44,770 bases of DNA, taken from positions 1 through 44,770 of the forward strand of contig JAAZGD010000057.1 of assembly GCA_012511395.1 (NCBI GenBank), written 5' to 3'. How positions within the stretch are numbered: the stretch's first letter is position 1; the number at the start of each line of letters is the position of its first letter. Below are positions 12,061-38,238 of this stretch, one piece after another. The notes below the pieces were generated by a model. The model saw only the letters and a program-made list of their open reading frames with translations, searched no databases and had not been told where the DNA came from. Position numbers and translations under genes: made by a program. Source of the stretch: Clostridiales bacterium (GTDB lineage: Bacteria; Bacillota; Clostridia; Peptostreptococcales; Anaerovoracaceae).

Positions 12061-12084
12061 AATAAAGCCTCCTTAAACAAGGAA

Positions 12085-12113: not shown

Positions 12114-12169
12114 ACCGGGGGAAAGGTTAAAAATAACAATAAAGTACCATAATCAAATGCAATAGATTA

Positions 12170-12199: not shown

Positions 12200-12281
12200 C
12201 AAGGTGGAATATTTTCAAACAATCTCAACTTATATTTATTGTGATTTCTCACAGGAAAAAGATATCAGGGAGGAAGTATCT

Positions 12282-15131: not shown

Positions 15132-15223
15132 CAAAATCTTTAAAAAGCTGAATAACAAATGAAAGTCGGTAGGTTTGCGGGATGGTTCATTTCGCAAGCC
15201 TATCGTTTTATAAAGGTGAAAGT

Positions 15224-18505: not shown

Positions 18506-20896
18506 ATGGGTGGAGTCATGTATAAAGTAGAAAAAAGGGACGGCAAAGTAGTTGACTTTGATATAACGAAAATAAGTAAAGCGATTACCCAGGCCTTTGA
18601 AGCTGAAAACATGGAATATAACCAGGACATAGTGGATTTTCTGGCGTTGAAAGTCACCTCAGACTATGAGCCAAAGGTGAAAGACGGCCTTATAGGCGTT
18701 GAAGACATTCAGGACAGCGTGGAAGGCGTACTCATTAAAGCCGGTTATACCGATGTGGCAAAGTGCTATATCCTTTATCGTAAGCAGCGAGAAAAGATAC
18801 GTAATATGAAATCCACCATCCTTGACTACAAGGAGATTGTGGATAACTACGTTCATTTAAATGACTGGAGGGTAAAGGAAAATTCCACAGTTACTTATTC
18901 GGTAGGAGGCCTCATCTTAAGCAACTCAGGAGCAATAACCGCAAACTATTGGCTCTCTGAGATTTATGATGAAGAGATAGCAAGAGCCCATAGAAATGCA
19001 GACCTGCACATTCATGACCTTTCCATGCTGACAGGCTACTGCGCGGGCTGGTCTTTAAAGCAGCTTATTGAAGAGGGCTTAGGCGGGATTCCCGGCAAAA
19101 TAACTTCATCTCCTGCAAGTCATCTTGCTACTTTGTGCAACCAGATGGTTAACTTTTTAGGTATTATGCAAAATGAATGGGCAGGAGCCCAGGCTTTTTC
19201 TTCTTTTGATACATACCTTGCACCTTTTGTAAAGGTGGACAACCTGACCTTTGACGAAACAAAAAAGAGCATAGAGTCCTTCGTATACGGCGTCAACACA
19301 CCATCAAGATGGGGAACTCAGGCTCCCTTTTCCAATATAACACTGGACTGGACCGTGCCTAACGATATGGCAGAGCTGCCATGTATAGTAGGCGGCAAAA
19401 AGATGGATTTTAAATATAAAGACTGTAAGGAAGAAATGGATATGGTAAACAAGGCCTTCTTAGAAGTTATGATTGAAGGCGATGCCAACGGAAGAGGATT
19501 CCAGTATCCCATTCCCACATATTCCATTACAAAGGATTTTGACTGGTCTGAAACTGAAAACAATAAACTCTTATTCGAAATGACCGCAAAGTACGGCACT
19601 CCATATTTTTCAAATTATATTAACAGCGATATGGAGCCAAACGATGTAAGAAGCATGTGCTGTAGGTTAAGACTGGACTTAAGAGAGCTGAGAAAGAAGT
19701 CAGGAGGCTTCTTTGGATCAGGGGAAAGCACAGGCTCCATAGGAGTAGTGACCATTAACATGCCAAGAATAGCCTTTTTATCAAAGGATAAAGAGGAATT
19801 CTTCAAAAAACTGGACAAGATGATGGACATAAGCGCCCGTTCTCTCAAGGTGAAAAGAGATATTATAACGAGACTTCTTGAGGAGGGACTCTATCCATAC
19901 ACCAAGAGATACTTGGGGAATTTTGAAAACCACTTCTCAACCATAGGGCTTTTGGGAATGAATGAAGCTTGCCTTAATGCACCATGGATTAAGAAGGATA
20001 TGGCCCACGGGGAAGCTCAGGAGTTTACAAAGGAAGTTTTAAATCATATGAGAGATCGCCTTTCTGATTATCAGGAAATGTACGGAGACCTCTATAATCT
20101 GGAAGCAACTCCTGCAGAATCAACCACCTATAGATTGGCTAAACACGATAAGGAAAGATATCCTGAAATTATTACGGCGGCAGAAGAAGGGGGAACTCCT
20201 TATTACACAAACAGTTCCCATCTTCCTGTAAGCTTTACAGAAGATATATTCTCAGCTCTTGATATTCAGGACCGGCTTCAGACTCTATATACTTCAGGGA
20301 CAGTATTCCATGCCTTCTTAGGTGAGAAGCTGCCCTCCTACAGTTCTGCCATGAATCTTGTAAGAAAGATAGCCGAAAACTATCATCTGCCTTACTACAC
20401 CATGAGCCCTACTTATTCAGTATGTAAAAACCATGGTTATCTGGCGGGAGAATATAAAGAGTGCCCTGATTGCCACGAAGAGACAGAAGTGTACAGCAGG
20501 ATTACAGGCTACTATCGCCCTGTAAAGAACTGGAATGCAGGAAAAACTCAGGAATATAAAGAGAGAAAGCTCTATATTCCGGAAAACTCTGTTTTAACTG
20601 AGAGGGAAAGGGTAAAGAGTAATCTGGCTTCCAAAGGAAATGGTTTTTCCTACGGAGGTATTATGGAAGACGGAGTATACTTGTTCACCACAAAGACCTG
20701 CCCTAACTGTAAAATGGCAAAAGGCTTTCTTGAGACTGCAGGAGTGGAATATACTGCGGTAGATGCTGAGGATAATCTTGAGATGACAAAGCTTTTAAAC
20801 GTAAATATGGCACCTACCCTTGTGGTGGTAAGGGGAGAAGAACTGAACAGATATAACAATGCTTCCGATATAAAGAGATATTTAGAGGCGAAATAA
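18506..20896 (+). CDS. nrdD: Anaerobic (class III) ribonucleoside-triphosphate reductase with a C-terminal fused glutaredoxin/thioredoxin-like domain
   Basis: It has an ATP-cone N-terminus (KVEKRDGKVVDFDITKI), an MCCRLRL loop, Zn Cys residues (CKNHG...CPDC) and the glycyl radical motif RITGYYRPVKNWNAGK. About 100 extra residues follow, with YLFTTKTCPNCKMAKGFL...APTLVV. An alternative start lies at 18518. Confidence 0.9.
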   Translation: MGGVMYKVEKRDGKVVDFDITKISKAITQAFEAENMEYNQDIVDFLALKVTSDYEPKVKDGLIGVEDIQDSVEGVLIKAGYTDVAKCYILYRKQREKIRNMKSTILDYKEIVDNYVHLNDWRVKENSTVTYSVGGLILSNSGAITANYWLSEIYDEEIARAHRNADLHIHDLSMLTGYCAGWSLKQLIEEGLGGIPGKITSSPASHLATLCNQMVNFLGIMQNEWAGAQAFSSFDTYLAPFVKVDNLTFDETKKSIESFVYGVNTPSRWGTQAPFSNITLDWTVPNDMAELPCIVGGKKMDFKYKDCKEEMDMVNKAFLEVMIEGDANGRGFQYPIPTYSITKDFDWSETENNKLLFEMTAKYGTPYFSNYINSDMEPNDVRSMCCRLRLDLRELRKKSGGFFGSGESTGSIGVVTINMPRIAFLSKDKEEFFKKLDKMMDISARSLKVKRDIITRLLEEGLYPYTKRYLGNFENHFSTIGLLGMNEACLNAPWIKKDMAHGEAQEFTKEVLNHMRDRLSDYQEMYGDLYNLEATPAESTTYRLAKHDKERYPEIITAAEEGGTPYYTNSSHLPVSFTEDIFSALDIQDRLQTLYTSGTVFHAFLGEKLPSYSSAMNLVRKIAENYHLPYYTMSPTYSVCKNHGYLAGEYKECPDCHEETEVYSRITGYYRPVKNWNAGKTQEYKERKLYIPENSVLTERERVKSNLASKGNGFSYGGIMEDGVYLFTTKTCPNCKMAKGFLETAGVEYTAVDAEDNLEMTKLLNVNMAPTLVVVRGEELNRYNNASDIKRYLEAK

Positions 20897-20910
20897 GGCG
20901 GAGGTTTTAA

Positions 20911-21822
20911 ATGAAGGACATCACAATAATAGGAGGCGGTTGTGCAGGTTTAACGGCAGCCGTGTACGGAGCAAGGGCAGGAAAGGATGTGCTGGTTCTT
21001 GAAGGAGGAGTTCTTGGGGGACAGATAAGCTATTCTCCAAGAGTGGAAAACTATCCTTCCATTCAATCCATCAGCGGCGCAGATTTTTCCGAACAGCTCT
21101 ACGAGCAGGCCCTGTCACTTGGAGTATCAGTTGAGTTTACAGAGGTTACGGAAGTAAAGGAGAAGGACAACCATTTCGTTGTAGTTACAGGTCAAGGTGA
21201 GTTTGAAACTAGGACGGTGGTAATTGCAACAGGTGTAAAACACAGAGCTCTGGATATAGACGGAGAGAAGGCTATGGCAGGTCATGGCGTGTCATATTGT
21301 GCCACATGTGACGGAGCCTTTTTCAGAAACCAAAAGGTGGCTGTTGTGGGAGGCGGAAACACTGCACTTCTGGGAGCGGAATACTTGTCTTCAATCTGTG
21401 ATCACGTTACCCTTATTCACAGACGGGATGCCTTCAGGGGAGAAGAGGCTTTAGTAAAGAGGCTTAGAGAGAAGGATAATGTAACCTTGATGACTCCTTA
21501 TGTAGTAACGAAAATTGAAGGGGAAGGAGCATTAAAGGGAGCCATAGTTAAAAATGTTAAAGACGAAAGTGAAACATCTTTGGATGTAAGCGGAATTTTC
21601 GTTTTAGCAGGTCAAATTCCAAACAATGACCTGTTTAAGGATTTGGTTAAGCTTACAGAGGGCGGATTTATAGATGCTAAAGAAGACTGCAAAACTTCAA
21701 GGCCCGGAATATTTGTGGCAGGAGACTGCAGGGAAAAAACTGTAAGACAATTGACCACAGCAGCGGCTGACGGAACGGTGGCGGCCCTTGCAGCATCTTC
21801 ATACATAGATGAGAATTTTTAA
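20911..21822 (+). CDS. trxB: Thioredoxin-disulfide reductase (low-Mr, NADPH type)
   Basis: The motifs are GGGCAGLTAA (FAD), the redox-active site CATCDG, GGGNTA with HRRDAFR (NADPH), and FVAGDC. Confidence 0.9.
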   Translation: MKDITIIGGGCAGLTAAVYGARAGKDVLVLEGGVLGGQISYSPRVENYPSIQSISGADFSEQLYEQALSLGVSVEFTEVTEVKEKDNHFVVVTGQGEFETRTVVIATGVKHRALDIDGEKAMAGHGVSYCATCDGAFFRNQKVAVVGGGNTALLGAEYLSSICDHVTLIHRRDAFRGEEALVKRLREKDNVTLMTPYVVTKIEGEGALKGAIVKNVKDESETSLDVSGIFVLAGQIPNNDLFKDLVKLTEGGFIDAKEDCKTSRPGIFVAGDCREKTVRQLTTAAADGTVAALAASSYIDENF

Positions 21823-21902
21823 TCTTTTCGAGGAACAGGCTTAAACCTTAAGAAATCCTTTGGAAGGAATGCAGCTGATTTAAAAACAACCTGGAGAGCG
21901 AC

Positions 21903-22562
21903 ATGGAACTGGATCAAATATTAAAACAACGACAAAGCATCCGCAAGTTCAAAAATGTGGATATTCCCGATTCGGATATTGAGGAAATGGTCAAGGCGGC
22001 CGGTACTGCCCCTTCGGGAAAGAATATTCAAAACTGGTATTTTGTGGCTATAAAGCAGGAAGCTGCCAAAAAAGCCATTGGGGAAATCATTGAGAAGAAG
22101 AAGGAAGGAATTGCCCGTAAAATGGACGAGGTTGACGGGGATAAGGCAGCACGTTTTCGTAAGTTTGTGAAGAACTTTACCTTCTTTGCCACAGGTGCCC
22201 CTGTGCTGTTTCTGGTTTTTGCCGAAAACTATTACCCTTCCGGCTATAGGGAATATGAGCTCATAAACGCTCCCCGGGAAGTATTGGATGACCTGCTTTA
22301 CCATCGTAACCCCGGCATGCAATCAATAGGAGCCCTTCTTCAAACCTTTAGCTTAAAAGCCGTGGATATGGGCTATGGAACGTGCTGGCTCACCAGTGCC
22401 AATTATGCGGGAGAGGAAATCCAAAAATGGGCTCAGGATGAGGGGATTTTCTTCAAAGAGAACTATTTCCTTGCGGCCATGATGGCTCTCGGGGTTCAGG
22501 AAGAAGGAGCCAGAAGTCCGGGACGAAAAACGTTAGAAGAAATATATACGCTGATCAAATAA
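21903..22562 (+). CDS. Nitroreductase-family flavoprotein
   Basis: The N-terminus ILKQRQSIRKFKN...IPDSDIEEMVKAAGTAPSGKNIQNWYFV is the classic nitroreductase signature. Confidence 0.8.
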   Translation: MELDQILKQRQSIRKFKNVDIPDSDIEEMVKAAGTAPSGKNIQNWYFVAIKQEAAKKAIGEIIEKKKEGIARKMDEVDGDKAARFRKFVKNFTFFATGAPVLFLVFAENYYPSGYREYELINAPREVLDDLLYHRNPGMQSIGALLQTFSLKAVDMGYGTCWLTSANYAGEEIQKWAQDEGIFFKENYFLAAMMALGVQEEGARSPGRKTLEEIYTLIK

Positions 22563-22596
22563 AGTAATTAAAGCTTTTAAGAGAATATATTGAAAT

Positions 22597-22632
22597 AAAA
22601 GGGAAGTATCACCATAGATACTTCCCTTTTTT
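22597..22632. terminator. Bidirectional rho-independent terminator between convergent operons
   Basis: The stem is GGGAAGTATC (22601-22610) / GATACTTCCC (22617-22626) with a 6-nt loop. AAAA flanks it on the left and TTTTTT on the right. Confidence 0.75.
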
Positions 22633-22674
22633 AAGGTTTGATTTCCATGGAACCAGAGTGGTCTTTTTATTTTG

Positions 22675-23613
22675 TTATCTCAGGAAACCTTGCAAAATTT
22701 TCTCTTCTGCCTCTTCTTCTGTAAGGCCCAGGGCCATCAGCTTAATGAGCTGCTCGGAGTTTATCTTTCCTAAGGCAGCCTCATGTACCAGCTGAGCATC
22801 CTGATGGTAAGCGGTGATTTCAGGTACGGAAGAAACTACAGCTTCATCCATTATGATGGAATCACACTGTATATGGCCACGGGACTCTTCATAGCCTCTT
22901 AAATTTAAGTGGAACACCTGCTTTGATTTTCCCATGGCTACAGAACGGGAAATGATTTGGGCTGTAGAGTCTTTGCCTTTAAGCTCCACCGTCACATTTG
23001 ATTCAGCCTCCTGAGCTTCGTCAGTCAACAGCCTTTCTGTCACTATGAGCTTTGCATTTTTCTCAAGATATACATCTGTATCTCTCACAGTTTTGTCAAC
23101 GCCTCTTATTTGAATCATTTCCAGCTCAGCTACACCATTTTCTTTAATATGAATAATGGTCTTGGGGTTTAAAATCTTTTCCCCCCTGCCTTTGCCCTCG
23201 CCATAATGTTTTTCCACATACTTCATTCTGGCATTTTTTTCTATGAAAAACTCATGGATGCCGTCGTGTTGGGATGTAGCTTCCGAGTCGTTATGAATAC
23301 CGCACCCTGCAACTATTTCCACATCAGAGTCTTCCCCCACCAAAAAGGTATTGTAGACAAGGTCATTCATGGACTGTGAAAGGATTACAGGAATATGAAC
23401 GCTTTCATTTTTCGTCCCGGGTTTTATAATAACATCAATACCCGGCTTATCCTTCTTCGTTACGATGTTAATGTTCTCTGTAGTATTCCTTAATACGCCT
23501 TCGCCGTTTTTCCTTATGTTATATGCACCCTTTGGCATATCGTGAATATTTGCCACCTCTTCCAAAAGAGTTTTATGTGTCACATCCAGCAATTGCACGC
23601 CCTCCTTTATCAC
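22675..23613 (-). CDS. SufB/SufD-family Fe-S assembly scaffold protein
   Basis: 312 aa. The N-terminus LLEEVANIHDMPKGAYNIRKNGEG and a beta-helix-like repeat region are typical of clostridial SufBD proteins. The likely true start is TTG at 23592, preceded by AAGGAGGG. Confidence 0.7.
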   Translation of the reverse strand: MIKEGVQLLDVTHKTLLEEVANIHDMPKGAYNIRKNGEGVLRNTTENINIVTKKDKPGIDVIIKPGTKNESVHIPVILSQSMNDLVYNTFLVGEDSDVEIVAGCGIHNDSEATSQHDGIHEFFIEKNARMKYVEKHYGEGKGRGEKILNPKTIIHIKENGVAELEMIQIRGVDKTVRDTDVYLEKNAKLIVTERLLTDEAQEAESNVTVELKGKDSTAQIISRSVAMGKSKQVFHLNLRGYEESRGHIQCDSIIMDEAVVSSVPEITAYHQDAQLVHEAALGKINSEQLIKLMALGLTEEEAEEKILQGFLR

Positions 23614-24325
23614 AGTTCTGCCTGCAGCGGCAGTCTGTATCTATGAGTTCTATTTCGGAAAGAATTTTTTCTTTCGTAGTAATATCAGAAACCATACCAT
23701 CCTCTAAAACTATTACCTGATCTGCCAGCTTAATAATTCTGTCCTGGTGAGAGATGATGATAATAGTGGTGTCATGGTTCCGGTTCATGTTCTCAAAGGT
23801 TTCAGACAGCCTTTGAAAGCTCCATAAATCTATACGTGCTTCAGTCTCATCGAAAATAGCCACCTTAAGATCTTTGGCAAGTATGGAGGCTATCTCCACA
23901 CGCTTTAACTCTCCTCCCGAGAAGGTGGCATTAAGCTCCCTATCAAGATAGTCTTGAGCACAAAGGCCCACGTCATATAGAAGGTCACAAGGATTTTGCA
24001 CCTTGCCGCCTCCTGCCATATCAAGGAGCTGACTGACCTTTATGCCTTTAAACCGAGGGGGCTGTTGAAAGCCGTAGCCTATACCAAGATTAGCTCTTTC
24101 GTTAATCTTCATATCGGTTATGTCCACACCGTCTAAAAGGATCTGACCACTTGTAGCCTTATAAATTCCCATTATGGCCTTAGCAAGAGAAGACTTGCCA
24201 CCGCCGTTTGGGCCTGTAATTACATATATCTTTTTCCTATGAAAGGAGAGGTTAATATTTTTCAATATTTCCTTTTCCCCCTCCAAATCCTTTAAGGTTA
24301 AACTTAAATCTTTTATCTCTATCAT
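23573..24325 (-). CDS. sufC: SufC-like ABC ATPase with a Cys-rich C-terminal tail
   Basis: The motifs are Walker A GPNGGGKSS, signature FSGGELKR and Walker B VAIFDETEA. The tail is DTDCRCRQNCDKGGRAIAGCDT. I placed the start at MIEIKDL (SD GGAGG 8 nt upstream). Confidence 0.7.
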   Translation of the reverse strand: MIEIKDLSLTLKDLEGEKEILKNINLSFHRKKIYVITGPNGGGKSSLAKAIMGIYKATSGQILLDGVDITDMKINERANLGIGYGFQQPPRFKGIKVSQLLDMAGGGKVQNPCDLLYDVGLCAQDYLDRELNATFSGGELKRVEIASILAKDLKVAIFDETEARIDLWSFQRLSETFENMNRNHDTTIIIISHQDRIIKLADQVIVLEDGMVSDITTKEKILSEIELIDTDCRCRQNCDKGGRAIAGCDT

Positions 24326-24375
24326 TTCAAAATCCTCCACATGTCTATTTATTCCACCAAAGGAGGAAATGAAAC

Positions 24376-24405
24376 AAAAAAAGCCCTAAAAGGGCTTTTT
24401 TAAAA
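24376..24405 (-). terminator. Possible terminator or attenuator between the NifX-like gene and sufC-like
   Basis: An AAAAAAGCCC / GGGCTTTTTT hairpin with a 5-nt loop and a T-run on the minus strand. The GC core is short. Confidence 0.45.
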
Positions 24406-24418
24406 AGACTTCTTGGTG

Positions 24419-24757
24419 TTAATGATTATGCTCTTTACAAGGTCCGCCCTTTCCCTCAAGGTCTCCTCTTAAGTACGCTAATACAGCATCCTCCGCAAGA
24501 CCGTTCGCACCTAAGGCTACTTCAATATTGTTCTCATTAAAAATATCGATAGCTCCTTGCCCCATACCTCCTGAGATTATTACATTTACTCCATGCTCAT
24601 GTAAAAACAGGGGAAGGAACCCGGGCTTGTGGCCGGGGTTTGGTACTGTTTCAAAGGATTCTATCTCACAGTCTGATACTTGGAAAATATGGAAGCTTTC
24701 ACAGTGGCCAAAGTGGTCTGTGACTCTGTTTCCATCACTTGCTACAGCGATTTTCAT
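24419..24757 (-). CDS. NifB/NifX-family (dinitrogenase FeMo-cofactor-binding domain) protein
   Basis: MKIAVASDGNRVTDHFGHCESFHIF...VNVIISGGMGQGAIDIF is the typical Nitro_FeMo-Co domain pattern. Confidence 0.75.
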   Translation of the reverse strand: MKIAVASDGNRVTDHFGHCESFHIFQVSDCEIESFETVPNPGHKPGFLPLFLHEHGVNVIISGGMGQGAIDIFNENNIEVALGANGLAEDAVLAYLRGDLEGKGGPCKEHNH

Positions 24758-24769
24758 GTATTGTTCCTC

Positions 24770-25591
24770 CTATAAATTTATTTGTAAACCTGTATATTGA
24801 TAGTCGATTTGATCTTTTAAGCGTTCCTTTAACAATTCATAAGCCGGCAATCCTGTGCAGTGGCAGGTGTAATACTTTGAGGGCTTATCTTTTAAGTAGT
24901 CTGAAAGACTTATTACAAGCTCTGAATTATCGGGATCCCCTTCTTCTCTGAAAAGATGGAAGCCTCCTAAAACGAAATCAGGGTATGCTTTTCTTTCTTT
25001 ATAGTACTGCTCCATAATATTTGCTATACCGCTGTGAGCACAGCCTATGAAGAGGTATGTTTTATCATTTTCTGTAATTATCATGCTCTGCTCATGAGCA
25101 AAATCATCTAAAGACTGATCTCCGTCTTTATCAATAAATAGTTGAGAGTTTCCCGGAGGATTCATAAGGGAACCTTTTACTCCTGAAAAAATCTCCACCC
25201 CTTTCATAATCTCCATCCTCTGGGGAGGGAAAACTATTTGAGGTAAATCAAAGAAGGATTTGTCCACCCCGATATAGACTACCCGCCCGTCATTTTCATG
25301 GGCATAAAAATCGCTAAAGCCTTCATGGCGTATATATATTTTGGCTTTTTTGTTAAGCTCTGTGAAAGCTTTAATACCGCCTGTATGGTCGTAGTGACCG
25401 TGTGATACCACGCAGAAGTCTACGTCCTTAAGAGGTACCTTCATCTTCTCCGCATTTTCTATAAAATTGGGGCTTGCCCCAAAATCAAAGAGAATGTTTT
25501 TGCCTAAAGCCTCTATGTATAGAGAAAGGCCATGCTCCTTGTGGAACTCAGGGCTCATACTTTCATTTTCAATCAGAACAGATAATTTCAT
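24770..25591 (-). CDS. MBL-fold metallo-hydrolase (COG1237-like)
   Basis: The N-terminus is MKLSVLIEN. The metal-binding motif VVSHGHYDHTGG is present, along with a later GCAHSG and CHC. Confidence 0.75.
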   Translation of the reverse strand: MKLSVLIENESMSPEFHKEHGLSLYIEALGKNILFDFGASPNFIENAEKMKVPLKDVDFCVVSHGHYDHTGGIKAFTELNKKAKIYIRHEGFSDFYAHENDGRVVYIGVDKSFFDLPQIVFPPQRMEIMKGVEIFSGVKGSLMNPPGNSQLFIDKDGDQSLDDFAHEQSMIITENDKTYLFIGCAHSGIANIMEQYYKERKAYPDFVLGGFHLFREEGDPDNSELVISLSDYLKDKPSKYYTCHCTGLPAYELLKERLKDQIDYQYTGLQINL

Positions 25592-25602
25592 AGGACACCT
25601 CC

Positions 25603-26469
25603 TTATTCGAGCACCATGTTTTTAATATCGGGGAACATTGATCTTAGAGCGTCGCCCGCCTTTGTAGCTGTGTGTACAATGGAAACTCCCTTGTTCACAG
25701 CATTGACAGCTTCAGTGTCGTAGGGAATTTGGCCCAGGAAGGGAATGTTTTCATTTTTTAAATACTCCCGGATCAGATTGCTGTTCTCTTCGTTTATATC
25801 GTACTTGTTGATTATAACACAACATTTAACATTGAAACCCTCTGCAGTTTTTAAAATTCTTTTCATATCGCTTATGCCTGTGAGAGAAGGCTCTGTAACG
25901 ATTAAGGCAAGGTCCACTCCTGAAAGGGAAGCTATGACAGGACATCCGATTCCGGGGGATCCGTCAAGAATAGCCAGATCGCCTTTCAAGTCCTGTTCAA
26001 AGAGTCTGGTTTTCACGCTTGTTACGAGAAGGCCTGAGTTTCCCGCTCCGATTTTCAGTTGGGCGGTGGAAAAGGTTTTATCGTCATCCTTATAAAGCAT
26101 CAGCTCCCCTGATTTTTCTGGAAGGATTGAGACTGCATCATGGGGACAAACAAAATGGCAGACGCCGCAGCCTTCACAGCTTATGGGATCTACTCTGTAT
26201 GTGTCGATTATAATTTCTATGGCATCAAAGCGGCAGTGCTCGTAGCATAAATTACAGGAGATGCACTTGTCTGTGTCTATGTATGCCTTAGGCAGGCCGT
26301 AATAATCCTTAAAATCATAAACCTCTTTATGGTTGAGAGTTAAATGAAGATTAGGTGTATCCACATCGCAGTCTGCGTAGGACAGACAATTAAACAATTC
26401 TATTAAGGCTGTGGCCACCGTTGTTTTCCCGGTGCCGCCTTTACCGCTTAAAACCAGCAGTTTTTTCAC
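25603..26469 (-). CDS. MinD/ParA-type P-loop ATPase with an inserted 2x[4Fe-4S] ferredoxin domain
   Basis: It has a deviant Walker A (SGKGGTGKTT) and the ferredoxin motifs CISCNLCYEHC and CEGCGVCHFVCP. Confidence 0.8.
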   Translation of the reverse strand: MKKLLVLSGKGGTGKTTVATALIELFNCLSYADCDVDTPNLHLTLNHKEVYDFKDYYGLPKAYIDTDKCISCNLCYEHCRFDAIEIIIDTYRVDPISCEGCGVCHFVCPHDAVSILPEKSGELMLYKDDDKTFSTAQLKIGAGNSGLLVTSVKTRLFEQDLKGDLAILDGSPGIGCPVIASLSGVDLALIVTEPSLTGISDMKRILKTAEGFNVKCCVIINKYDINEENSNLIREYLKNENIPFLGQIPYDTEAVNAVNKGVSIVHTATKAGDALRSMFPDIKNMVLE

Positions 26470-27304
26470 TTTTTGCCTCCCTGTATATAGTGTTAAGCAG
26501 TTTTGAGAAGAATTTTTCCCACTTGGGGTTTTCCTCTGCCAGAATTTTCCCCTTGCTGTTTTCTTCTCCCATTTTTTTATCGTAGGGAATTTCTGCGATT
26601 ATGGGCAGATTGTTTTCTCTGCAAAAAGCAAAGGTAGGATTTTCCTCTCCCGTGGATTTATTAATGATTATTCCAAAAGGGATTTCATAAAGGGTAACAA
26701 GATCGTATACCAGCTTTAAATTGTGAGCGCCAAACAAGGTGGGCTCTGCCACCAATACTGCGTAATCCGCATCCCTAATACTTTCAGTTACGAGGCAGCC
26801 TGTTCCGGGGGGACAGTCTATAAAGGTAAAGCTCTTGTATGTTTTGGAATTTTCCAAGAGATTTTGAACCAGCTTCGTCCCCGAAGCTTCTCCTATTTTC
26901 ATCTCTGCCGATAATACAGTGATTTTATCTTTAACCCCCAAGTAGACCTGCCCTAATGTTTTCGGAATTTCTGTAAAAGCTTTGGTGGGGCATACTAAAA
27001 GACAACCGCCACAGGAGTGACAAAGCTGGGGGAAGACCATTAATTTGTCACCTGTATAGGCCAAGGCGTTAAACTTGCAGAAGTCTACGCATTTTTCACA
27101 GCCGTTGCATTTACTTTGGTCTACTTGGGGAAGAGGTTGAGTAACAGTTTCTGCAGATATTATATGAGGCTTAAAGTATATTCTGCCGTTTGGCTCCTCC
27201 ACATCGCAGTCCACATAGACTGCTTCCTTTGCAGCACTTGCTATATTCACGCTGAGAAAGGTTTTACCCGTTCCTCCTTTACCACTTAATACAGCAATCC
27301 TCAT
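26441..27304 (-). CDS. MinD/ParA-type P-loop ATPase with an inserted 2x[4Fe-4S] ferredoxin domain (paralog)
   Basis: The motifs are SGKGGTGKTF, CNGCEKCVDFC and CHSCGGCLLVCP. It overlaps the downstream paralog by 29 nt. Confidence 0.8.
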   Translation of the reverse strand: MRIAVLSGKGGTGKTFLSVNIASAAKEAVYVDCDVEEPNGRIYFKPHIISAETVTQPLPQVDQSKCNGCEKCVDFCKFNALAYTGDKLMVFPQLCHSCGGCLLVCPTKAFTEIPKTLGQVYLGVKDKITVLSAEMKIGEASGTKLVQNLLENSKTYKSFTFIDCPPGTGCLVTESIRDADYAVLVAEPTLFGAHNLKLVYDLVTLYEIPFGIIINKSTGEENPTFAFCRENNLPIIAEIPYDKKMGEENSKGKILAEENPKWEKFFSKLLNTIYREAKSEKTAGFKR

Positions 27305-27309
27305 ATGAT

Positions 27310-27671
27310 TTACCTGCCGTGACGAAGGCCTTCATGAGTCCTTGTAAGAAGGGAAAGCTTTCCTTCTTCAAAAGCCTTTAAAGTTTCTTCTATAAGTAAG
27401 GAGGATGTTTCATAAATCTTAATACCGGCCTCTCTTATTACAAGAGATGCATTTTCTCCCAAGCGAGGTGTAATAAGAACATCTGCACGGGCATTTGCAA
27501 GAATCTGTGCCGCCTTACTCCTGCGCCGGAGGGGCTGTTCACAGAATCATTTAAAATGTAGTTCTTTGTATTTGTCTTTGAATCAAAGATGAGAAAATAA
27601 GGGGCTCTGCCAAAGTTGGAGCTTACCTTGCTTTCATCAGTTTTGTCCGTTACGGGAATAGCAATTTTCAT
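27310..27671 (-). pseudogene. NifB/NifX-family protein gene with a 1-nt frameshift
   Basis: From ATG 27671 (SD AAAGGAG) it reads MKIAIPVTDKTDESKVSSNFGRAPYFLIFD...SPSGAGV. The frame is then lost near 27512-27518. The next frame continues AAQILANARADVLITPRLGENASLVIREAGIKIYE... to TAA at 27310-27312. The 362-nt span is not a multiple of 3. Confidence 0.75.
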
Positions 27672-27704
27672 GTTTTTTCTCCTTTTGCTTCTGGTTATAC
27701 AGTA

Positions 27705-27732
27705 ATTATACAACATAGATGACATATGTCAA
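27705..27732 (-). promoter_or_regulatory. Consensus sigma-A promoter of the NifX/MinD-ferredoxin/MBL operon, with a palindrome over the -35 element
   Basis: On the minus strand it reads TTGACA (27727-27732), a 16-nt spacer, then TATAAT (27705-27710). A perfect 12-bp palindrome TGACATATGTCA (27720-27731) overlaps the -35 element. Confidence 0.65.
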
Positions 27733-27777
27733 ATACTTGAAAAAAGAGAAATTCCTTTGAGGGGGACATTTTTGGCC

Positions 27778-27806
27778 TTGCAAAACGAACATATGTTCGA
27801 TATAAT
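27778..27806 (+). promoter_or_regulatory. SOS promoter: a LexA (Cheo) box inside the spacer of a near-consensus promoter
   Basis: TTGCAA (27778-27783), a 17-nt spacer, then TATAAT (27801-27806). The spacer contains CGAACATATGTTCG (27786-27799), a perfect match to the Firmicute LexA consensus CGAAC-N4-GTTCG. Confidence 0.85.
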
Positions 27807-27833
27807 GATGGCACCTTCAAGGAGGAAAAAGAA

Positions 27834-29066
27834 ATGATACTTCACGTAGACGCAAACTCTGCATACTTAAGCTGGACGGCTGCGGCTCTTCTTGAGAAGG
27901 GAGGAGCGGTTGATTTACGCCTGGTGCCTTCAGTAATAGGAGGCTCTGAGAAAAACAGGCATGGCATAGTGCTGGCTAAATCTATTCCTGCAAAGAAAAT
28001 GGGAGTTAAAACGGGAGAAACCCTCTTTGAAGCAAGAAGCAGGTGTCCCCATCTTTTAGTATATCCTCCTGACTACGGTCTGTATGTTCTGGCCTCAGAC
28101 AGCATGGTTGAAATTTTAAGGCAATACAGCTCCTTTGTGGAAAGATACAGCATAGATGAGTGCTTTTTAAAATGGGAGGGAAGAAGGGAAGAAAGCGTTA
28201 AAGCGGCCTTCGCCATTAAGGAAAGGATTAAGAAGGAGCTGGGGTTTACAGTAAATGTGGGGGTTTCCACAAACAAGCTTTTGGCAAAAATGGCATCGGA
28301 GCTAAAAAAGCCGGATATGGTTCATACGCTGTTTAAGGAGGAGATGGAGGAAAAGATGTGGCCTCTTCCTGTGGGGGATCTCTTTATGGTGGGAAGAGCT
28401 ACGGAAAGGAAGTTGAAAGGCGTTGGAATAAATACCATAGGAGATCTTGCTTCAGCCGATAAGAGATGGCTCAGGCTTTTGTTAAAAAGCCATGGGGAGC
28501 TGGTCTATAGATATGCAAACGGTATAGATGAAACAGGAGTTTCAGAAAATTGCTTCAGCCTTCATAAAAGTGTGGGAAACAGCTTGACCACCTCCTATGA
28601 TGTAACGGCCTTTTCTGATGTAAGGGCCCACCTTTTAGGACTTTCAGAGCAGGTGGGCATAAGGGTGCGAAAGCTTGGGATGGAAGGGGATCTTATTTCC
28701 GTGTGGTTTAAAACAGAAGGGTTTCTTTCTTTAAGCCATCAGCGTAGGCTTCCCTATTATACAGCCTCCACCTCAAGAATATATGAAAATGCCATTATTC
28801 TCATGGAGGAAGCATGGAAAGGCCAGCCTTTAAGGCAGCTTGGTGTGTCTATAGGAGACCTTGTAAAAAAGAAGAAGGGCCAAATAAGCATATGGGAAAA
28901 GACGGAGGAAAAAGAGGACAGGCTTAATGAAACCTTAGATGCTGTAAGAAAAAGATACGGTAGAGAAAGCATAATAAGGGCAAGGTTTGCAAATAGCTGT
29001 CATAAGCCTTTAGTAGGAGGGGTGGGGGATATGGAATATATTATGATGGGAGGATATGAAATATGA
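27834..29066 (+). CDS. Y-family (UmuC/PolY-type) translesion DNA polymerase
   Basis: The motifs are ILHVDANSAYLSW, VERYSIDECFL and VGVSTNKLLAKMASE, the ImpB/MucB/SamB-family signatures. The SD is AAGGAGG. Confidence 0.85.
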   Translation: MILHVDANSAYLSWTAAALLEKGGAVDLRLVPSVIGGSEKNRHGIVLAKSIPAKKMGVKTGETLFEARSRCPHLLVYPPDYGLYVLASDSMVEILRQYSSFVERYSIDECFLKWEGRREESVKAAFAIKERIKKELGFTVNVGVSTNKLLAKMASELKKPDMVHTLFKEEMEEKMWPLPVGDLFMVGRATERKLKGVGINTIGDLASADKRWLRLLLKSHGELVYRYANGIDETGVSENCFSLHKSVGNSLTTSYDVTAFSDVRAHLLGLSEQVGIRVRKLGMEGDLISVWFKTEGFLSLSHQRRLPYYTASTSRIYENAIILMEEAWKGQPLRQLGVSIGDLVKKKKGQISIWEKTEEKEDRLNETLDAVRKRYGRESIIRARFANSCHKPLVGGVGDMEYIMMGGYEI

Positions 29067-29326
29067 AAATCTTAGCAGAGCCCATAGATGCTTTAGTGTT
29101 CTTTCATAAAGGGAAAATACCTACTCCTTATAAGTTTAAGTACGTGACGGTCCCCGGAGAAAGAGAAACTGTATATGTGGATAAAATTCTTGAGGTAGAT
29201 GAACAGAAAATTGCAGGGATCCGCTCCTTTGTGTATAAGTGCCAAAGCATCATAGGAGAAGAAATTAAAAGGTATGAGCTGAAATATATAATAGAAGAGT
29301 ATAGGTGGGAGCTTTATAAAATGTGA
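29063..29326 (+). CDS. Small protein translationally coupled to the Y-family polymerase (unknown function; position of an accessory subunit)
   Basis: An ATGA stop/start overlap lies at 29063-29066. The protein is 87 aa with no motif I recognise. Confidence 0.55.
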   Translation: MKILAEPIDALVFFHKGKIPTPYKFKYVTVPGERETVYVDKILEVDEQKIAGIRSFVYKCQSIIGEEIKRYELKYIIEEYRWELYKM

Positions 29327-29386
29327 GAAGAGTCTTCCTTTGTGGTATAATCATAAAAATATTAAAAGTCATAAGGGGAAATAGAT

Positions 29387-29992
29387 ATGATTAAAAAGCT
29401 TTCAGCTATAGCACTTATAGCAGTCCTTCTTTTCACACTTGCTTCCTGCAAAGGTGAGCCTGTACAAAATGAGAAAGAGGATGAAAATAAAAACCCTGAT
29501 ATCGAATGGATTAATGAAATTTCAATGCCTTCTGAATCTGGATCCTCACGAGGGTTGGAAAACATTTCAACTCTTGATCTTTATGGAAATCCCGTAGATT
29601 CGGGAATTTTTAATAATTACGAAATAACCATAGTAGATGTGTGGGGCACTTATTGCAGCCCATGTATTAAGGCTATGCCTGTACTTGCTTCACTTCATGA
29701 GAAGTATGAGGATAAAGGTGTAAATGTTATAGGTATAGTAATAGATATTCAGAATAAGGACTTATCTCCTAAGGCTGAGGGTTTAGTTACAGCCATGGAT
29801 ATTACACAGAGGACCGGAGCAGACTTTACCCATATATTAGCTTCAAAGAATATTATTTCCTCTGTTGTAAGAAACATAAGCGCAATACCGGCTTCCTTTA
29901 TTGTAGACAGTGAAGGCAATGTAATTACGAAAATTCTTTACGGTGGTCACAGCCTTGAACAGTGGGAAGAATTAATAAATGAGTACATCTAA
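29387..29992 (+). CDS. TlpA/ResA-like extracytoplasmic thiol-disulfide oxidoreductase lipoprotein
   Basis: Signal peptide with lipobox LASC-KG. It has a thioredoxin fold with the active site WGTYCSPC and the conserved IPASFIVD (cis-Pro region). Confidence 0.8.
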   Translation: MIKKLSAIALIAVLLFTLASCKGEPVQNEKEDENKNPDIEWINEISMPSESGSSRGLENISTLDLYGNPVDSGIFNNYEITIVDVWGTYCSPCIKAMPVLASLHEKYEDKGVNVIGIVIDIQNKDLSPKAEGLVTAMDITQRTGADFTHILASKNIISSVVRNISAIPASFIVDSEGNVITKILYGGHSLEQWEELINEYI

Positions 29993-30137
29993 AAAAAGGA
30001 AAGACTATAGAGTAAAAGCATTACTTCTGCTTTTAGTAGGCCTCCTCTTTATTGCCATAGGAGTATTTAGAGGAGAAGTCTTTGTGGTTTTAACGAAAGC
30101 CATCCACATTTGTTTGGAATGTATAGGTATAGGCTAA
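29979..30137 (+). CDS. 52-aa membrane mini-protein with a C-terminal CxxC motif (not in the supplied ORF track)
   Basis: The ATG at 29979 overlaps the tlpA-like 3' end by 14 nt. The product is MSTSKKRKDYRVKALLLLLVGLLFIAIGVFRGEVFVVLTKAIHICLECIGIG. The TAA at 30135-30137 directly abuts the next ATG. It has a basic N-terminus, one TM helix and a CLEC motif. Confidence 0.6.
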   Translation: MSTSKKRKDYRVKALLLLLVGLLFIAIGVFRGEVFVVLTKAIHICLECIGIG

Positions 30138-31001
30138 ATGAAGAGGCATATCATTCAAGGAGCTTTTACAGCTATTACAAACAGCTACTATAAAGGGTTT
30201 TTAGCGGGAAGCATTTACCAGGGAAATGGTAAAGCTCTTTGCCTTCAGGGGCTTAATTGCTATTCCTGCCCAGGTGCTTTAGGGTCATGTCCAATCGGCT
30301 CTTTCCAGGCAGTGGCAGGTGCAAGAGGTTATACGGTTCCTTTTTATCTCATTGGATTCTTTCTGGCTTTCGGTGCTTTTTTCGGCCGTTTTGTCTGCGG
30401 ATATCTTTGCCCCTTTGGGTTGTTTCAGGATTTATTACATAAGATTCCATTTCCTAAGAAAATAAGGAAGGTGCCATTTGATAAGTACTTAAAGTATTTA
30501 AAGTATTTCTTCCTTTTAGTTTTCGTGTTTCTACTACCGGCTTTTGTAAGTAATGATTTTGGAGTAGGAGACCCTTGGTTTTGTAAGTATGTTTGTCCTT
30601 CAGGGACTTTTATGGCAGGATGGCCTCTTGTAATTTTAAATGGAGGTATAAGAGGGACCATTGGATTTTTATTTGCATGGAAATCCTTTATACTCATCGC
30701 AATAATTATTCTGTCCATAATTATTTACAGACCTTTTTGCAGATACATATGTCCTTTAGGAGCTATTTACGGCTGTTTTAATAAAGTGTCTTTTTATAGA
30801 TTCAATGTAAATAAGGATACTTGCATAGAGTGTAAGAAGTGTCAGGAAGTTTGCAAGTTTGATATACCTGTATATTTGACTCCCAACTCTATGGACTGCA
30901 TAAGGTGCGGGGACTGCTTAAAAGTATGTCCTACAAACGCATTACAAAGAATACCTTATCTTAGAAGTCAGGAGGAGCTTTTAAGTGACAAGGCTAAGTA
31001 A
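30138..31001 (+). CDS. NapH/MauN-like integral-membrane polyferredoxin (4Fe-4S binding protein)
   Basis: Several TM segments carry CxxxCP-type motifs (CYSCPGALGSCP, CGYLCPFG, CKYVCPSG, CRYICPLG). The C-terminus has 2x[4Fe-4S] motifs CIECKKCQEVC and CIRCGDCLKVCP. Confidence 0.8.
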   Translation: MKRHIIQGAFTAITNSYYKGFLAGSIYQGNGKALCLQGLNCYSCPGALGSCPIGSFQAVAGARGYTVPFYLIGFFLAFGAFFGRFVCGYLCPFGLFQDLLHKIPFPKKIRKVPFDKYLKYLKYFFLLVFVFLLPAFVSNDFGVGDPWFCKYVCPSGTFMAGWPLVILNGGIRGTIGFLFAWKSFILIAIIILSIIIYRPFCRYICPLGAIYGCFNKVSFYRFNVNKDTCIECKKCQEVCKFDIPVYLTPNSMDCIRCGDCLKVCPTNALQRIPYLRSQEELLSDKAK

Positions 31002-32388
31002 AGTAGTTGCTGTTTTAATAGCTCTTATTTTAGTGATTTCTTCTTCATCTATATCATGGGGTGCCTTGATGCCTTTAGGATTTTCACCTTGGGCAGAAGG
31101 GGGCATAAAAAGATCCATAGGTTATGATGTTATGCCCAAAATATATGAGGACCTTGATATGAGAGAAGCTGCCACAAGGAAGGAATTCACTTATCTTGCA
31201 GTTAACATTTATGAGACCTTGTCGGGAGAAAAGATTAAGGAGCTTTCCTATGAACCTTTTTTAGATATAAGTGATGAGGAAGTGGGCAAAGCTTTTTCCA
31301 TAGGAATAGTTAATGGAGTGGGAGAAGACATGTTTGATCCTGAGGCCAGTCTTACAAGGGAACAGGCTGCCACCATGTTAACTAGAATCTATTTAAAGGT
31401 ATCAGAAAAACCAGTTGATAACAGGGGGAGTAGTCTTTTTAAAGATGACAAATATATAAGCTCCTATGCAAAAGAAGCGGTTTACTTTATGGCGAAAAAA
31501 GGCATGGTGGAAGGAATGGGAGATAATACCTTCGGACCCCTTCTTTTAGTTACGAAAGAACAAGCCTTGACCATAGGTGCGAGAATGCTGGACTCCTGGT
31601 TTCTTTCAATGGATAGAGAAAGACCTCTTAAATATACTTTTGGCATGAGAACTAACACCTTGGAGGAGATTTACAGTGTTTTAGAAGGAACAAAAGAAAC
31701 AGGGAGAAACAAAGTCTCTTTAAGAATGGATAAGGGACTTTACGACCACTTTATGAGCTTGGGCCTTCCCTATTACTTTAGAGGCATTGAAGGTATAACA
31801 TGCAGATATTATGAGAAAATAGGACTTGTTGAGATGGAGGTAGCATATAACAGATACCTTACCCTTTCTGCATATATAAATAATAAACTAGAAGGGGAAA
31901 TCACTTCTGAAATACTGATTCTTGATTCCACCATTGACCATATTTTAGAAAACATTACTATGGACTCAATGAGCCTTTATCAAAAGGAAAGGGCTGTTCA
32001 CGACTATATGGTAAAGACTTATGAGTACGATACCAAGGTTAAGGAAAATGACGGGAAAAATATAAGCAGATCCTTTGCCGGGCTTTTGCAAAACCAGAAG
32101 GGAGTATGCTCTGCTTATGCGGAGCTCTTTGATTTATTTATGATGAAAATTGGTGTGCCTTCTCTTACGGTAATAGGAACAGTAAAGGATGGAGGAGGCC
32201 ATATGTGGAATATGGTTTACCTTTCGGATAACTGGCATATGGTAGATGTAACATGGGATGACCCTGTGCCTGACAGGCCGGGGAAAACAAGATATAACTA
32301 CTTTAATATTTCAACTGAGCAACTTAAAGAGACACATATTTTTGAAGAAGAAAACTATCCTCTTGCAACTTCAGGAAAGATTAATTAA
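30985..32388 (+). CDS. Secreted SLH-repeat protein with a transglutaminase-like cysteine-protease core
   Basis: GTG start with an AGGAGG SD, plus a signal peptide. The SLH-like repeats include MFDPEASLTREQAATMLTRIY and NTFGPLLLVTKEQALTI. The C-terminal Cys-His-Asp core is KGVCSAYAELF ... GGGHMWNMV ... MVDVTWDD. Confidence 0.7.
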   Translation: MTRLSKVVAVLIALILVISSSSISWGALMPLGFSPWAEGGIKRSIGYDVMPKIYEDLDMREAATRKEFTYLAVNIYETLSGEKIKELSYEPFLDISDEEVGKAFSIGIVNGVGEDMFDPEASLTREQAATMLTRIYLKVSEKPVDNRGSSLFKDDKYISSYAKEAVYFMAKKGMVEGMGDNTFGPLLLVTKEQALTIGARMLDSWFLSMDRERPLKYTFGMRTNTLEEIYSVLEGTKETGRNKVSLRMDKGLYDHFMSLGLPYYFRGIEGITCRYYEKIGLVEMEVAYNRYLTLSAYINNKLEGEITSEILILDSTIDHILENITMDSMSLYQKERAVHDYMVKTYEYDTKVKENDGKNISRSFAGLLQNQKGVCSAYAELFDLFMMKIGVPSLTVIGTVKDGGGHMWNMVYLSDNWHMVDVTWDDPVPDRPGKTRYNYFNISTEQLKETHIFEEENYPLATSGKIN

Positions 32389-34642: not shown

Positions 34643-35040
34643 AGAGGAATTATAGCATTAAGAGGAGTATAAAACAAAATAGGCCGTTACAAACGACCTA
34701 TTCTGTTCAAAAGGGGTATTGGGATTAGAGATTAAAGAGGTTATCAGGGGGATAACCACATATAAATTATATTTACTTAAGGTGGATAATGCAAGAAATA
34801 GAGCAATAATATTAGGCGATTGGAAGGGGAAGAAAGAGAAACAAGGAAAAGTAAGGATTTTGTAAACAAAATTATGGAAAGCATACCGCAAGTTCGTACT
34901 AAAATCATAATTCCAAAAACATCTGTTGAAGGAGCCAATACTCTATTGTGTAACCATAAGAATTTATGATAGTATTACATTTGGAAAATATTATGTAAAG
35001 CAGCATATTAAATAGAAATGGAAAGGTGTGTAAAGGGACA

Positions 35041-35838: not shown

Positions 35839-35852
35839 AGGAGGAGATATAT

Positions 35853-36662: not shown

Positions 36663-36673
36663 AGGAGCCGTAG

Positions 36674-38105: not shown

Positions 38106-38134
38106 AAGAATGAGGGAAAAGAATAAAAAAAAGA

Positions 38135-38163
38135 TTGAATTGAACATCCTGCTATGCTAAACT
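38135..38163 (+). promoter_or_regulatory. Candidate rplS promoter
   Basis: TTGAAT (38135-38140), a 17-nt spacer ending in TGC, then TAAACT (38158-38163). Confidence 0.4.
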
Positions 38164-38238
38164 ATAAAGGTTATTACGGGCGGTCCTCTTAAGAGATAAG
38201 TCTTAAAGAACGTCTTGGGGGAGAGGAGGAATACGAAT

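Follow-up and report, generated by a model that had tools for sequence, protein, structure and literature searches.

Five minus-strand genes at positions 27732 to 24377 of a 44,770-nucleotide contig from a Clostridiales bacterium (JAAZGD010000057.1, assembly GCA_012511395.1; hereafter, the window) encode two Di-Nase (NifX-like) proteins, two MinD/ParA-class ATPases with inserted ferredoxin domains and a metallo-β-lactamase (MBL)-fold protein. Comparison with related loci and with the proteins studied in Desulfovibrio indicates that this array is, with good probability, a Firmicute variant of the gene cluster that encodes the orange protein (ORP) complex in anaerobes. The main new result concerns its control region: the palindrome TGACATATGTCA, which overlaps the −35 box of the array promoter, is a conserved operator that usually occurs in two copies bracketing the promoter. 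Also new in this analysis are that the Firmicute clusters and the Desulfovibrio ORP cluster appear to be the same system, and that the MBL-fold protein is a recurrent extra component of ORP clusters.

The first gene of the array (NifX-like #1; 27310..27671, minus) encodes a Di-Nase (PF02579) protein of the orange-protein/Orp8/MTH1175 type and is interrupted in the window by a 1-nt deletion, discussed below. It is followed by the A-type ATPase gene (26441..27304, minus; CbiA, ParA and Fer4 Pfam matches), whose product is Orp3/Orp4-like and carries an inserted 2×[4Fe-4S] ferredoxin domain, and by the gene for its paralogue, the B-type ATPase (25603..26469, minus; CbiA/ParA and Fer4), which likewise has an inserted ferredoxin domain; the two genes overlap by 29 nt. 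The MBL-fold gene (24770..25591, minus; PF00753) specifies a 273-aa metalloprotein with an HGHYDH motif, and the last gene, NifX-like #2 (24419..24757, minus), corresponds to the C-terminal Di-Nase domain of MrpORP (NCBIfam model NF041136), here as a protein on its own. Pfam and NCBIfam searches support every gene assignment in 22675-27732, and together with the open reading frames (ORFs) they bear out the gene identities, gene order, minus-strand orientation and 29-nt overlap given in a preliminary description of this DNA.

The ORP complex consists of Orp3 together with Orp4, Orp5, Orp8 and Orp9. Orp3 and Orp4 are paralogues of ~31 kDa that combine two [4Fe-4S] ferredoxin motifs with a MinD-like C terminus, an architecture shared by the A/B pair of the window; Orp8 is homologous to the Mo-Cu-S orange protein, and Orp9 is MrpORP. 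Orp3, Orp4 and Orp8 copurify and receive Fe-S from MrpORP, the Di-Nase domain of which binds a [3Fe-4S] cluster; in the Desulfovibrio gigas orange protein the bound cluster is of the Mo-Cu-S type (PMC6345978). Our assignment of orthology to this complex rests on architecture, on a match to the D. gigas orange protein structure (2wfb) and on the NCBIfam MrpORP model. The intact form of NifX-like #1, a 120-aa protein encoded by the ENA metagenome contig L001, matches MTH1175 (1eo1, 9e-19) and TM1816 (1rdu, 4e-16) in the PDB, and it also matches 2wfb, with E = 3e-11 over 97 residues. NifX-like #2 matches PH0822 and TM1290, not 2wfb, and the two Di-Nase proteins belong to different subfamilies (MTH1175/TM1816/ORP and TM1290/PH0822, respectively). 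Against NF041136, NifX-like #2 scores 107.5 bits (E 8.5e-31) over positions 265-364 of 365. Its motifs DHFGHCE, VPNPGHKPG and C-K-E-H (C-x2-H) correspond to the CXHFGHCE, proline-rich and CDH motifs of the [3Fe-4S]-binding Di-Nase domain of MrpORP (Pardoux et al. 2019, PMC6345978); that is, the HFGHCE, proline-rich and C-x-H motifs are kept. Among its 3,575 homologues, the top 120 are all stand-alone proteins, with 60-68% identity to NifX-like #2.

Both Di-Nase proteins belong to the PF02579 family, as the preliminary description had it in naming two NifX-like genes. The NifX, NafY and NifB C-terminal domains are of the same fold family and bind complex metal-sulfur cofactors non-covalently. 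Unlike these, the window proteins have no nitrogenase context and fall below the equivalog cut-offs of nifX (TIGR02663; 17.4 vs. 112 bits) and nifB (TIGR01290; 18.4 vs. 343.65 bits). IssA of Pyrococcus furiosus is a Di-Nase family protein that binds thioferrate via a cationic C-terminal tail and stores iron-sulfur species in an anaerobe without nitrogenase (PMC6345978).

The two ATPases (287/288 aa) are CbiA/ParA-type proteins with the two 4Fe-4S motifs inserted past ~residue 60. Both carry the deviant Walker A motif SGKGGTGKT, which is invariant among aligned homologues; the signature lysine of this motif marks ATP-sandwich dimers in the MinD/NifH/Mrp class. The eight ferredoxin cysteines, Cys33 (DCD) and Cys170 (DxPPGxxC) are likewise invariant when A and B types of distant phyla are compared. 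The last of these, located after Walker B/switch II, presumably takes the NifH cluster-ligand position. The AlphaFold2 (AF2) model of protein A has a predicted local distance difference test (pLDDT) score of 91. Its best fold match is archaeal MinD, with ApbC, BchL, NifH, Cfd1 and ATPase-type HypB also found; the matches, which include Soj, FleN and McdA, are generic for the MinD/ParA class, and no solved structure with a ferredoxin insert is among them. Neither ATPase passes the MinD models (TIGR01968, 26.7/48.9 vs. 212.9 bits; TIGR01969, 41.8/51 vs. 201.75 bits). The deviant Walker A motif and the dimerizing ATPase fold are shared with NifH, BchL, Mrp/NBP35, CooC and HypB of the SIMIBI class; unlike those proteins, A and B make up a heteromeric pair, and a two-cluster ferredoxin domain is inserted in each. 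At E below 1e-10 the A-type ATPase has over 7,900 homologues, and the array proteins are 50-68% identical across orders, which argues for purifying selection. The MBL-fold assignment likewise holds, with matches to PF00753 and to the structures 2p4z (5e-39 over residues 2-269) and TM1679 (3h3e; 2e-25). The protein shares full-length similarity and the metal motif with this family of 'metal-dependent hydrolases of beta-lactamase superfamily II', its intact HxHxDH being read as SHGHYDH in the translation. The literature searched yielded nothing relevant on COG1149/COG1433 or on COG1237/2P4Z/7DCK/TM1679.

A genome scan with the A/B alignment, in which ORFs were labelled with phmmer seeds, returned 80 loci spanning Bacillota, Synergistota, Spirochaetota, Chloroflexota, Desulfobacterota, Planctomycetota, Bathyarchaeia and Thorarchaeota. 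The order A-then-B is found in 79 of these 80, in bacteria and archaea. In the 46 fully flanked loci the most constant companions are NifX1 (43) and NifX2 (34), followed by DUF134 (26), Mrp (17), DUF5320 (11) and MBL (10), and the MBL gene always lies 3′ of B, five times alone and five times with Mrp. The cluster is intact in Veillonella, Anaerococcus, Christensenella, Izemoplasmatales, Sphaerochaeta and Bathyarchaeia. In the closest syntenic relative of the window, L002 (66% protein identity), the same five genes are followed by a C_GCAxxG_C_C gene. The Cloacimonadales locus reads DUF5320, DUF134-NifX fusion, A, B, NifX2, and the Tissierella locus DUF134, NifX1, A, B, Mrp, NifX2. Two further observations were made on cluster composition. 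A C_GCAxxG_C_C 'putative redox-active protein' gene lies inside or immediately after some ORP-type clusters (L002 10912-11355, L012, L017, L042, L194 and L208). In addition, a second small set, DUF5320-DUF134-NifX1 or DUF5320-DUF134-MBL, lies near the main cluster at L046 7980-9045 and L085 3632-5343, and MBL can therefore pair with DUF134 without the ATPases.

Importantly for the identity of the system, true MrpORP genes occur in clusters of this order. The gene 3′ of B passes the 450-bit cut-off of the MrpORP equivalog (NF041136) in Christensenella L015 (460.7), Anaerovirgula L016 (470.8), L026 (451.2) and Sphaerochaeta L043 (461.9), and in Desulfobacterota L072 and L073 it scores 518-523. 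The L015, L016, L026 and L043 clusters with full-length MrpORP have the same A/B order and the same operator as the window. In Tissierella the two halves of MrpORP are separate genes, one for the P-loop part (348 bits, model positions 1-243) and one for NifX2. Because same-order clusters pass the MrpORP cut-off, the window cluster is taken to be orthologous to the clusters with true MrpORP. The window itself contains no Mrp homologue, and only the Di-Nase part of MrpORP is present at the locus (107.5 bits against 450). Missing from locus and window is the MrpORP ATPase domain, which contains the CXXC bridging-cluster motif and has been shown to transfer Fe-S, and the MBL-fold gene occupies the slot held in relatives by the Mrp/NBP35 P-loop half. 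As a separate observation, a 427-aa fusion of a NifU-like scaffold (TIGR03419, 103 bits) to the MrpORP P-loop domain adjoins the A/B pair at L088 8550-9833, in a Smithella metagenome-assembled genome, and this fusion appears to tie the cluster to Fe-S scaffold chemistry.

Comparison with the D. vulgaris Hildenborough ORP cluster (orp5-orp4-orp3 / orpR / orp7-orp8-orp9) shows that both contain two paralogous MinD-type ATPases bearing two [4Fe-4S] motifs, along with a small Di-Nase protein of a single domain (Orp8) and a MrpORP-type Di-Nase domain, and that both kinds of cluster are restricted to anaerobes. However, there are differences. The D. vulgaris cluster consists of two divergent operons and the window array of a single one; the window lacks the Mrp/NBP35 P-loop domain; and in place of OrpR and σ54 it has a σ70 promoter with the TGACATATGTCA operator. 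No AAA+ enhancer-binding protein is present among the window ORFs scanned, and a σ54 promoter was considered and rejected, as no −24/−12 match lies upstream on the minus strand and the window-wide matches are at chance level. The homology and architecture established by these comparisons alter the status of the locus. What had been described as an orphan combination without established function corresponds to the ORP gene set, the experimental literature on which spans 2011 to 2021; its founding paper is said to be that of Fievet et al. in 2011. To our knowledge, all of that experimental work was done on two Desulfovibrio species, in which a σ54 activator confined to the lineage controls the cluster. 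The earlier idea of metallocluster handling independent of nitrogenase fits the published Desulfovibrio ORP biochemistry (PMC6345978), whereas the proposed link to Suf and to a nearby client is not supported, as discussed below.

The promoter of the array, TTGACA-16-TATAAT (27705..27732, minus), is the sole 12/12 consensus match of the σ70 type in the region, where promoter-like sites overall are not enriched (15 found vs. 11.8 ± 3.6 in shuffles). It is nearly base-for-base conserved in L002, and the promoter/operator layout recurs in dozens of other species. The palindrome TGACATATGTCA is present as an exact site at 27720..27731, over the −35 box (site 1); site 2 is absent. The consensus promoter with an overlapping 12-bp palindrome that had been reported here is thus confirmed. 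TGACATATGTCA is unique in the window and, even with up to two mismatches, no other window site is found. In L002, 11 of its 12 positions are kept, and there too the site overlapping the −35 box stands alone. The 10-mer GACATATGTC occurs in 34 of 93 loci and, in every occurrence but one (a third copy at L030, 1.8 kb upstream), adjoins the homologous cluster. It is often doubled, with the copies 34-40 nt apart, and the arrangement is typically GTTATTGACATATGTCA over the −35 box, ~10 nt, TATAAT, ~10 nt and TGACATATGTCAaaAAC, followed by the GGAGG-ATG of a DUF5320 or DUF134 gene.

The sites are closely confined to these clusters. With at most one mismatch allowed, 54 sites lie within 660 nt upstream of the cluster, in 34 of 71 genome loci, and the remaining 1.06 Mb holds four, three of which encode the conserved D/E-I-C-H of protein A. 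Loci with a site make up 30/42 in Bacillota, 1/1 in Izemoplasmatales, 2/2 in Spirochaetota and 1/1 in Synergistota, and 0/12 in Desulfobacterota, 0/5 in Planctomycetota and 0/4 in Archaea. Sites were found in 29 of the 41 loci with an in-cluster DUF134 gene compared with 5 of the 30 without one.

As an unbiased test, metagenome contigs were searched for the double site alone, with 22 specified bases, and 120 loci were returned. ORP-type or DUF134 genes adjoin the site in 99 of these, 83 of which have a DUF134 gene that begins no more than 700 nt from the site and points away from it. DUF134 comes first in 61 loci and DUF5320 in 27. The 21 hits without ORP genes are nearly all tandem-repeat arrays; the others are a contig end beside an 'MPK...' start, a class II aldolase gene and one unresolved case. 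The tandem arrays (L115, L122, L132, L136, L148, L177 and L192) have a ~22-nt unit, CCTGACATATG(T/C)CAACAAnGTT, that holds the same palindrome, and they lie between a 285-aa gene (MTHNLLKGKRGIIFGAL...) and a gene for a protein of ~1,035 aa or longer with a signal-peptide-like N terminus, with no ORP genes. At L154 332-383, a double TGACATATGTC site in a promoter-like layout lies upstream of the class II aldolase gene (PF00596), which is the sole clear non-ORP candidate for regulon membership among the 120 loci.

These data establish the conservation of the operator and its link to DUF134. DUF134 proteins contain a σ70 region-4-type helix-turn-helix, and many of those linked to the operator are 240-262-aa fusions of DUF134 to a PF02579 Di-Nase domain. 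DUF134 is therefore likely to be the autoregulated DNA-binding protein of TGACATATGTCA, with the Di-Nase domain as its sensor. Because the two sites bracket the core promoter, the arrangement suggests that DUF134 acts there as a repressor. We propose more tentatively, rating the whole somewhat short of an even chance, that TGACATATGTCA, or the extended GTTAnTGACATATGTCAnTAAC, is the operator of DUF134/COG1342, a previously undescribed transcription-factor family that would sense a metal-sulfur cluster via a Di-Nase domain fused to it or encoded beside it and so control the ORP clusters of Bacillota, Synergistota and Spirochaetota, in which the MBL-fold protein would replace or assist the cluster-loading carrier Mrp/NBP35. 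No DUF134 homologue is encoded in the 44.7-kb window. Two other loci, L145 and L171, keep both operator sites and have no DUF134 gene, and it is possible that the DUF134 protein for the window operator is encoded in trans elsewhere in the genome. No description of the motif or of the function of DUF134/COG1342/UPF0251 was found in the literature searched, which does not prove that none exists.

With respect to complex formation, ligand, direction of regulation and biochemical function, we infer the following scheme. The σ70 promoter would drive the array, with its −35 box inside TGACATATGTCA bound by a DUF134-family protein encoded elsewhere in the genome. By analogy with the Desulfovibrio biochemistry, the A and B ATPases may pair as an ATP-dependent heterodimer, which would act as an Fe-S cluster carrier and bind the small Di-Nase protein. 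For their part, the Di-Nase proteins would hold non-covalent metal-sulfide species, which in relatives are Mo-Cu-S, [3Fe-4S] or thioferrate. The nucleotide cycle of A and B could then control the binding or transfer of the cluster held by the Di-Nase proteins, with the inserted ferredoxins supplying electrons, so that the system would store, mature or hand on a metal-sulfide species under strongly reducing conditions. The same species might set transcription via DUF134, for which the fused Di-Nase domain would serve as the sensor in many organisms. In strict anaerobes, few gene sets of unknown function are spread as widely as ORP-type clusters, which range from Firmicutes to Bathyarchaeia, and the effector that frees the operator from DUF134 should either be the ligand that ORP proteins bind physiologically or report on it. 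Through its DUF134/Di-Nase link, the conserved operator thus offers a practical handle on the question of the ORP ligand, and it is the result most worth following.

The window copy of NifX-like #1 is broken: its two halves, ORFs 27438-27725 and 27310-27462 (minus), align to positions 1-50 and 62-93 of PF02579, with the true start at the ATG at 27671. The break is one missing A, an AAA run reading AA at ~27514. Contig L001, which is 97.5% identical to the window overall and, apart from the missing A, 100% identical over the NifX-like #1 gene and promoter, has the extra A. So do Logan contigs from four of four unrelated runs (two landfill, one manure and one wastewater), which otherwise match the window exactly over 27300-27760. 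The frameshift noted earlier in the first NifX-like gene is therefore present in this assembly but private to it, being absent from five independent assemblies. It is also not the only private change. Compared with four metagenome assemblies, the window has 13 private substitutions in 20001-34733, at 23811, 23836 and 23845 in the SufC-like gene and at ten other positions in 20651-30247; none was found in 34706-40000 (comparison with X1-X3). Transversions account for eight of the 13, the protein is altered by 10 of the 11 genic ones, and two of them, P166T and G169R, hit the conserved DEPxxG of the SufC-like Walker B/D-loop. A private T-for-A at 6151 creates a stop codon (TAA) where all four metagenome assemblies read TAT (Tyr), splitting the ABC ATPase gene (5836-6513, minus) of a Mo/W-type transporter (SBP_bac_11, permease, ATPase). 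This pattern suggests that the private changes are unselected, whether through local assembly error or very recent mutation. Since the natural population carries an intact NifX-like #1, the locus is best treated as functional. An apparent joint of 22600 to 27821 in runs X3 and X4, which would remove the whole block, was rejected as evidence of excision: it consists of two ~18-nt A-rich matches, and the contig runs on into an unrelated NifX-like gene.

Several points weigh against the ORP and operator assignments. The window locus is known from sequence alone, and the likeness of A and B to Orp3 and Orp4 (DVU2103 and DVU2104) is one of architecture. Three Desulfovibrio features, the Mrp/NBP35 P-loop domain, OrpR and the σ54 promoter, are absent here. 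In Desulfovibrio itself, the physiological role that has been proposed for the ORP complex is in cell division. The window is without DUF134 and has only site 1, which overlaps a −35 box that is conserved for its own reasons, and the window operator may be a relic. Finally, this copy of the locus carries the frameshift and several radical private substitutions and, if these are real, the ORP-type system of this strain may be impaired.

An alternative to an ORP cluster, part of which was put forward in the preliminary description, is that the array and the SufC/SufBD-like scaffold beside it together form a dedicated assembly line for an Fe-S or heterometal cluster, the client of which has its gene a few kb away (a CCG-domain protein, a radical SAM protein or a Mo-hydroxylase). 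The SufC-like ABC ATPase (23573..24340, minus; probable start at the ATG at ~24325, 3′ of GGAGG) has a Cys-rich C-terminal tail, and the 305-aa SufB/D-core protein (22675..23592 from the start chosen by the gene caller, ORF to 23613; minus) matches PF01458. The pair lies on the same strand, with a gap of only 78 nt between the last gene of the array and the SufC-like ORF, and the window contains a Mo/W ABC transporter, MoeA/MobA/XdhC-like proteins, a Mo-hydroxylase and a GltD/CCG protein at 2.8-17.5 kb, which is of interest given the Mo-Cu-S cluster of the D. gigas orange protein (PMC6345978). However, the array ends in an intrinsic terminator-like hairpin with a U run (24377..24401, minus). 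Described previously as weak, this hairpin in fact has 11 pairs and −12.8 kcal/mol (z = −4.2), 0 of 200 shuffles fold as well, and it is a credible terminator. L002 has the same array and no Suf pair, and neither a SufBD-like nor a strong SufC-like gene is present in any of the 80 related genome loci. The SufBD-like protein is 70-76% identical to proteins of Dehalobacter, Desulfonispora, Peptococcaceae, Tissierella and Synergistaceae and, in Dehalobacter and Tissierella, the gene for the same 251-aa ABC ATPase comes before its own, in unrelated contexts with no ORP genes. Scores are well below the equivalog cut-offs for SufC (TIGR01978; 131 vs. 212.8 bits), SufB (80.3 vs. 346.4), SufD (77.5 vs. 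222) and SmsB (59.9 vs. 650). Like minimal SUF-type systems (SufBC/SmsCB), the pair combines an ABC ATPase with a SufB/D core in the absence of SufS, SufE or SufU alongside, and no desulfurase is found in the window; unlike those systems, it falls far below all four cut-offs. Given the terminator, the absence from L002 and from the 80 loci and the occurrence alone elsewhere, the Suf-like genes, though correctly recognized (PF01458, ABC_tran), lie outside the unit, as a free-standing two-gene module that is an incidental neighbor of the array. The search for a client led to the same outcome. A census of neighborhoods, in which the nearest non-core gene on each side of related clusters was scanned against Pfam, revealed no recurrent client: the 134 proteins matched 150 different families, the commonest being Radical_SAM (6), DUF5320 (5, part of the cluster), Response_reg (5), Pyr_redox_2 (3) and NifU_N (3). 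The predicted CCG-domain or radical SAM client is not supported by these counts, and the ORP-type module is self-contained within variable surroundings. With the Mo gene cluster also not syntenic within 16.9 kb in L002, we consider the assembly-line explanation unlikely, and a false lead is removed: neither the Suf pair nor the nearby enzymes would be partners of the array.

Slightly less probable still is that the array encodes a MinD-like positioning or cell-division system in which the Fe-S domains are redox sensors and not cargo. The best folds for protein A are MinD, Soj, FleN and McdA, and the ORP literature describes the complex as 'putatively involved in cell division', with a polar MrpORP and a MinD-like C-terminal amphipathic helix in Orp3/Orp4. 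Nonetheless, no min genes adjoin the array, and no minC, minE, parB or division genes are adjacent or recur in the neighbor census. The constant partners are instead cluster-binding Di-Nase proteins, often with a Mrp/NBP35-type Fe-S carrier, and the candidate regulator DUF134, often Di-Nase-fused, is a better fit to metal-cluster logic. We regard as very improbable the view that the array is a degenerate remnant of iron-molybdenum cofactor biosynthesis after loss of nif, with the frameshift as ongoing decay. PF02579 is common to NifX, NafY and NifB, the folds matched by protein A include NifH and BchL, and one window gene is indeed frameshifted. Against this, the nifX and nifB models score far short of their cut-offs, none of the five other assemblies has the frameshift, the cluster is intact from Veillonella to Bathyarchaeia, and the 50-68% identity across orders speaks of purifying selection. 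Nitrogenase families are also missing, both from the 25 most frequent families of the 134 nearest neighbors and from the window ORFs of at least 100 aa not inside a longer ORF, which agrees with the earlier statement that the window has no nifHDK or nifEN genes. An ORP cluster under a DUF134-type operator remains the reading that we favor.

The wider window includes a Mo/W-related neighborhood at 87-17497. It comprises DUF364/DUF4213 ('heavy-metal chelation'), MoCF_biosynth and XdhC genes, a MobA-like NTP transferase-His_Phos_1 fusion, the Mo/W-type ABC transporter, an HTH_17 protein, an AMP-binding fragment, a C_GCAxxG_C_C gene (9601-9987), a methyltransferase, a radical SAM protein with an HMPTM zinc ribbon, a 975-aa Mo-hydroxylase with two [2Fe-2S] domains and a GltD-like/CCG protein. 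The C_GCAxxG_C_C gene adjoins the radical SAM gene, 15 kb from the array. At least 5 kb separates the Mo/W genes from the Suf pair, and at least 7 kb from the array, with nrdD-trxB-nitroreductase between, and they were not found in the 16.9 kb of L002 covered. As a weak lead, this context would fit the Mo-Cu-S chemistry of the D. gigas orange protein. A strong terminator hairpin (22597..22630, minus; −21 kcal/mol, z = −6.2) lies 3′ of the SufBD-like gene, and no Rfam RNA or riboswitch was found in the window.

On the other side of the array promoter, a divergent Y-family DNA polymerase gene (IMS/IMS_C; 27834-29066, plus) has a perfect Gram-positive SOS (Cheo/LexA) box, CGAACATATGTTCG, at 27786-27799, between the −35/−10 hexamers of a promoter-like plus-strand site at 27778-27806. 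The core ACATATGT is common to this box and to the ORP operator 55 nt away. A reading of the palindrome itself as a LexA box was rejected, as its half-sites are TGAC rather than GAAC and the motif is conserved in loci without a polymerase gene. An 87-aa ORF (29063-29326) overlaps the polymerase stop codon. Finally, NrdD, the anaerobic ribonucleotide reductase (18506-21822 region), has a C-terminal glutaredoxin-like domain (PF00462, residues 724-762), and a thioredoxin-reductase-like gene lies directly 3′ of its gene, an arrangement that is the same in L002.

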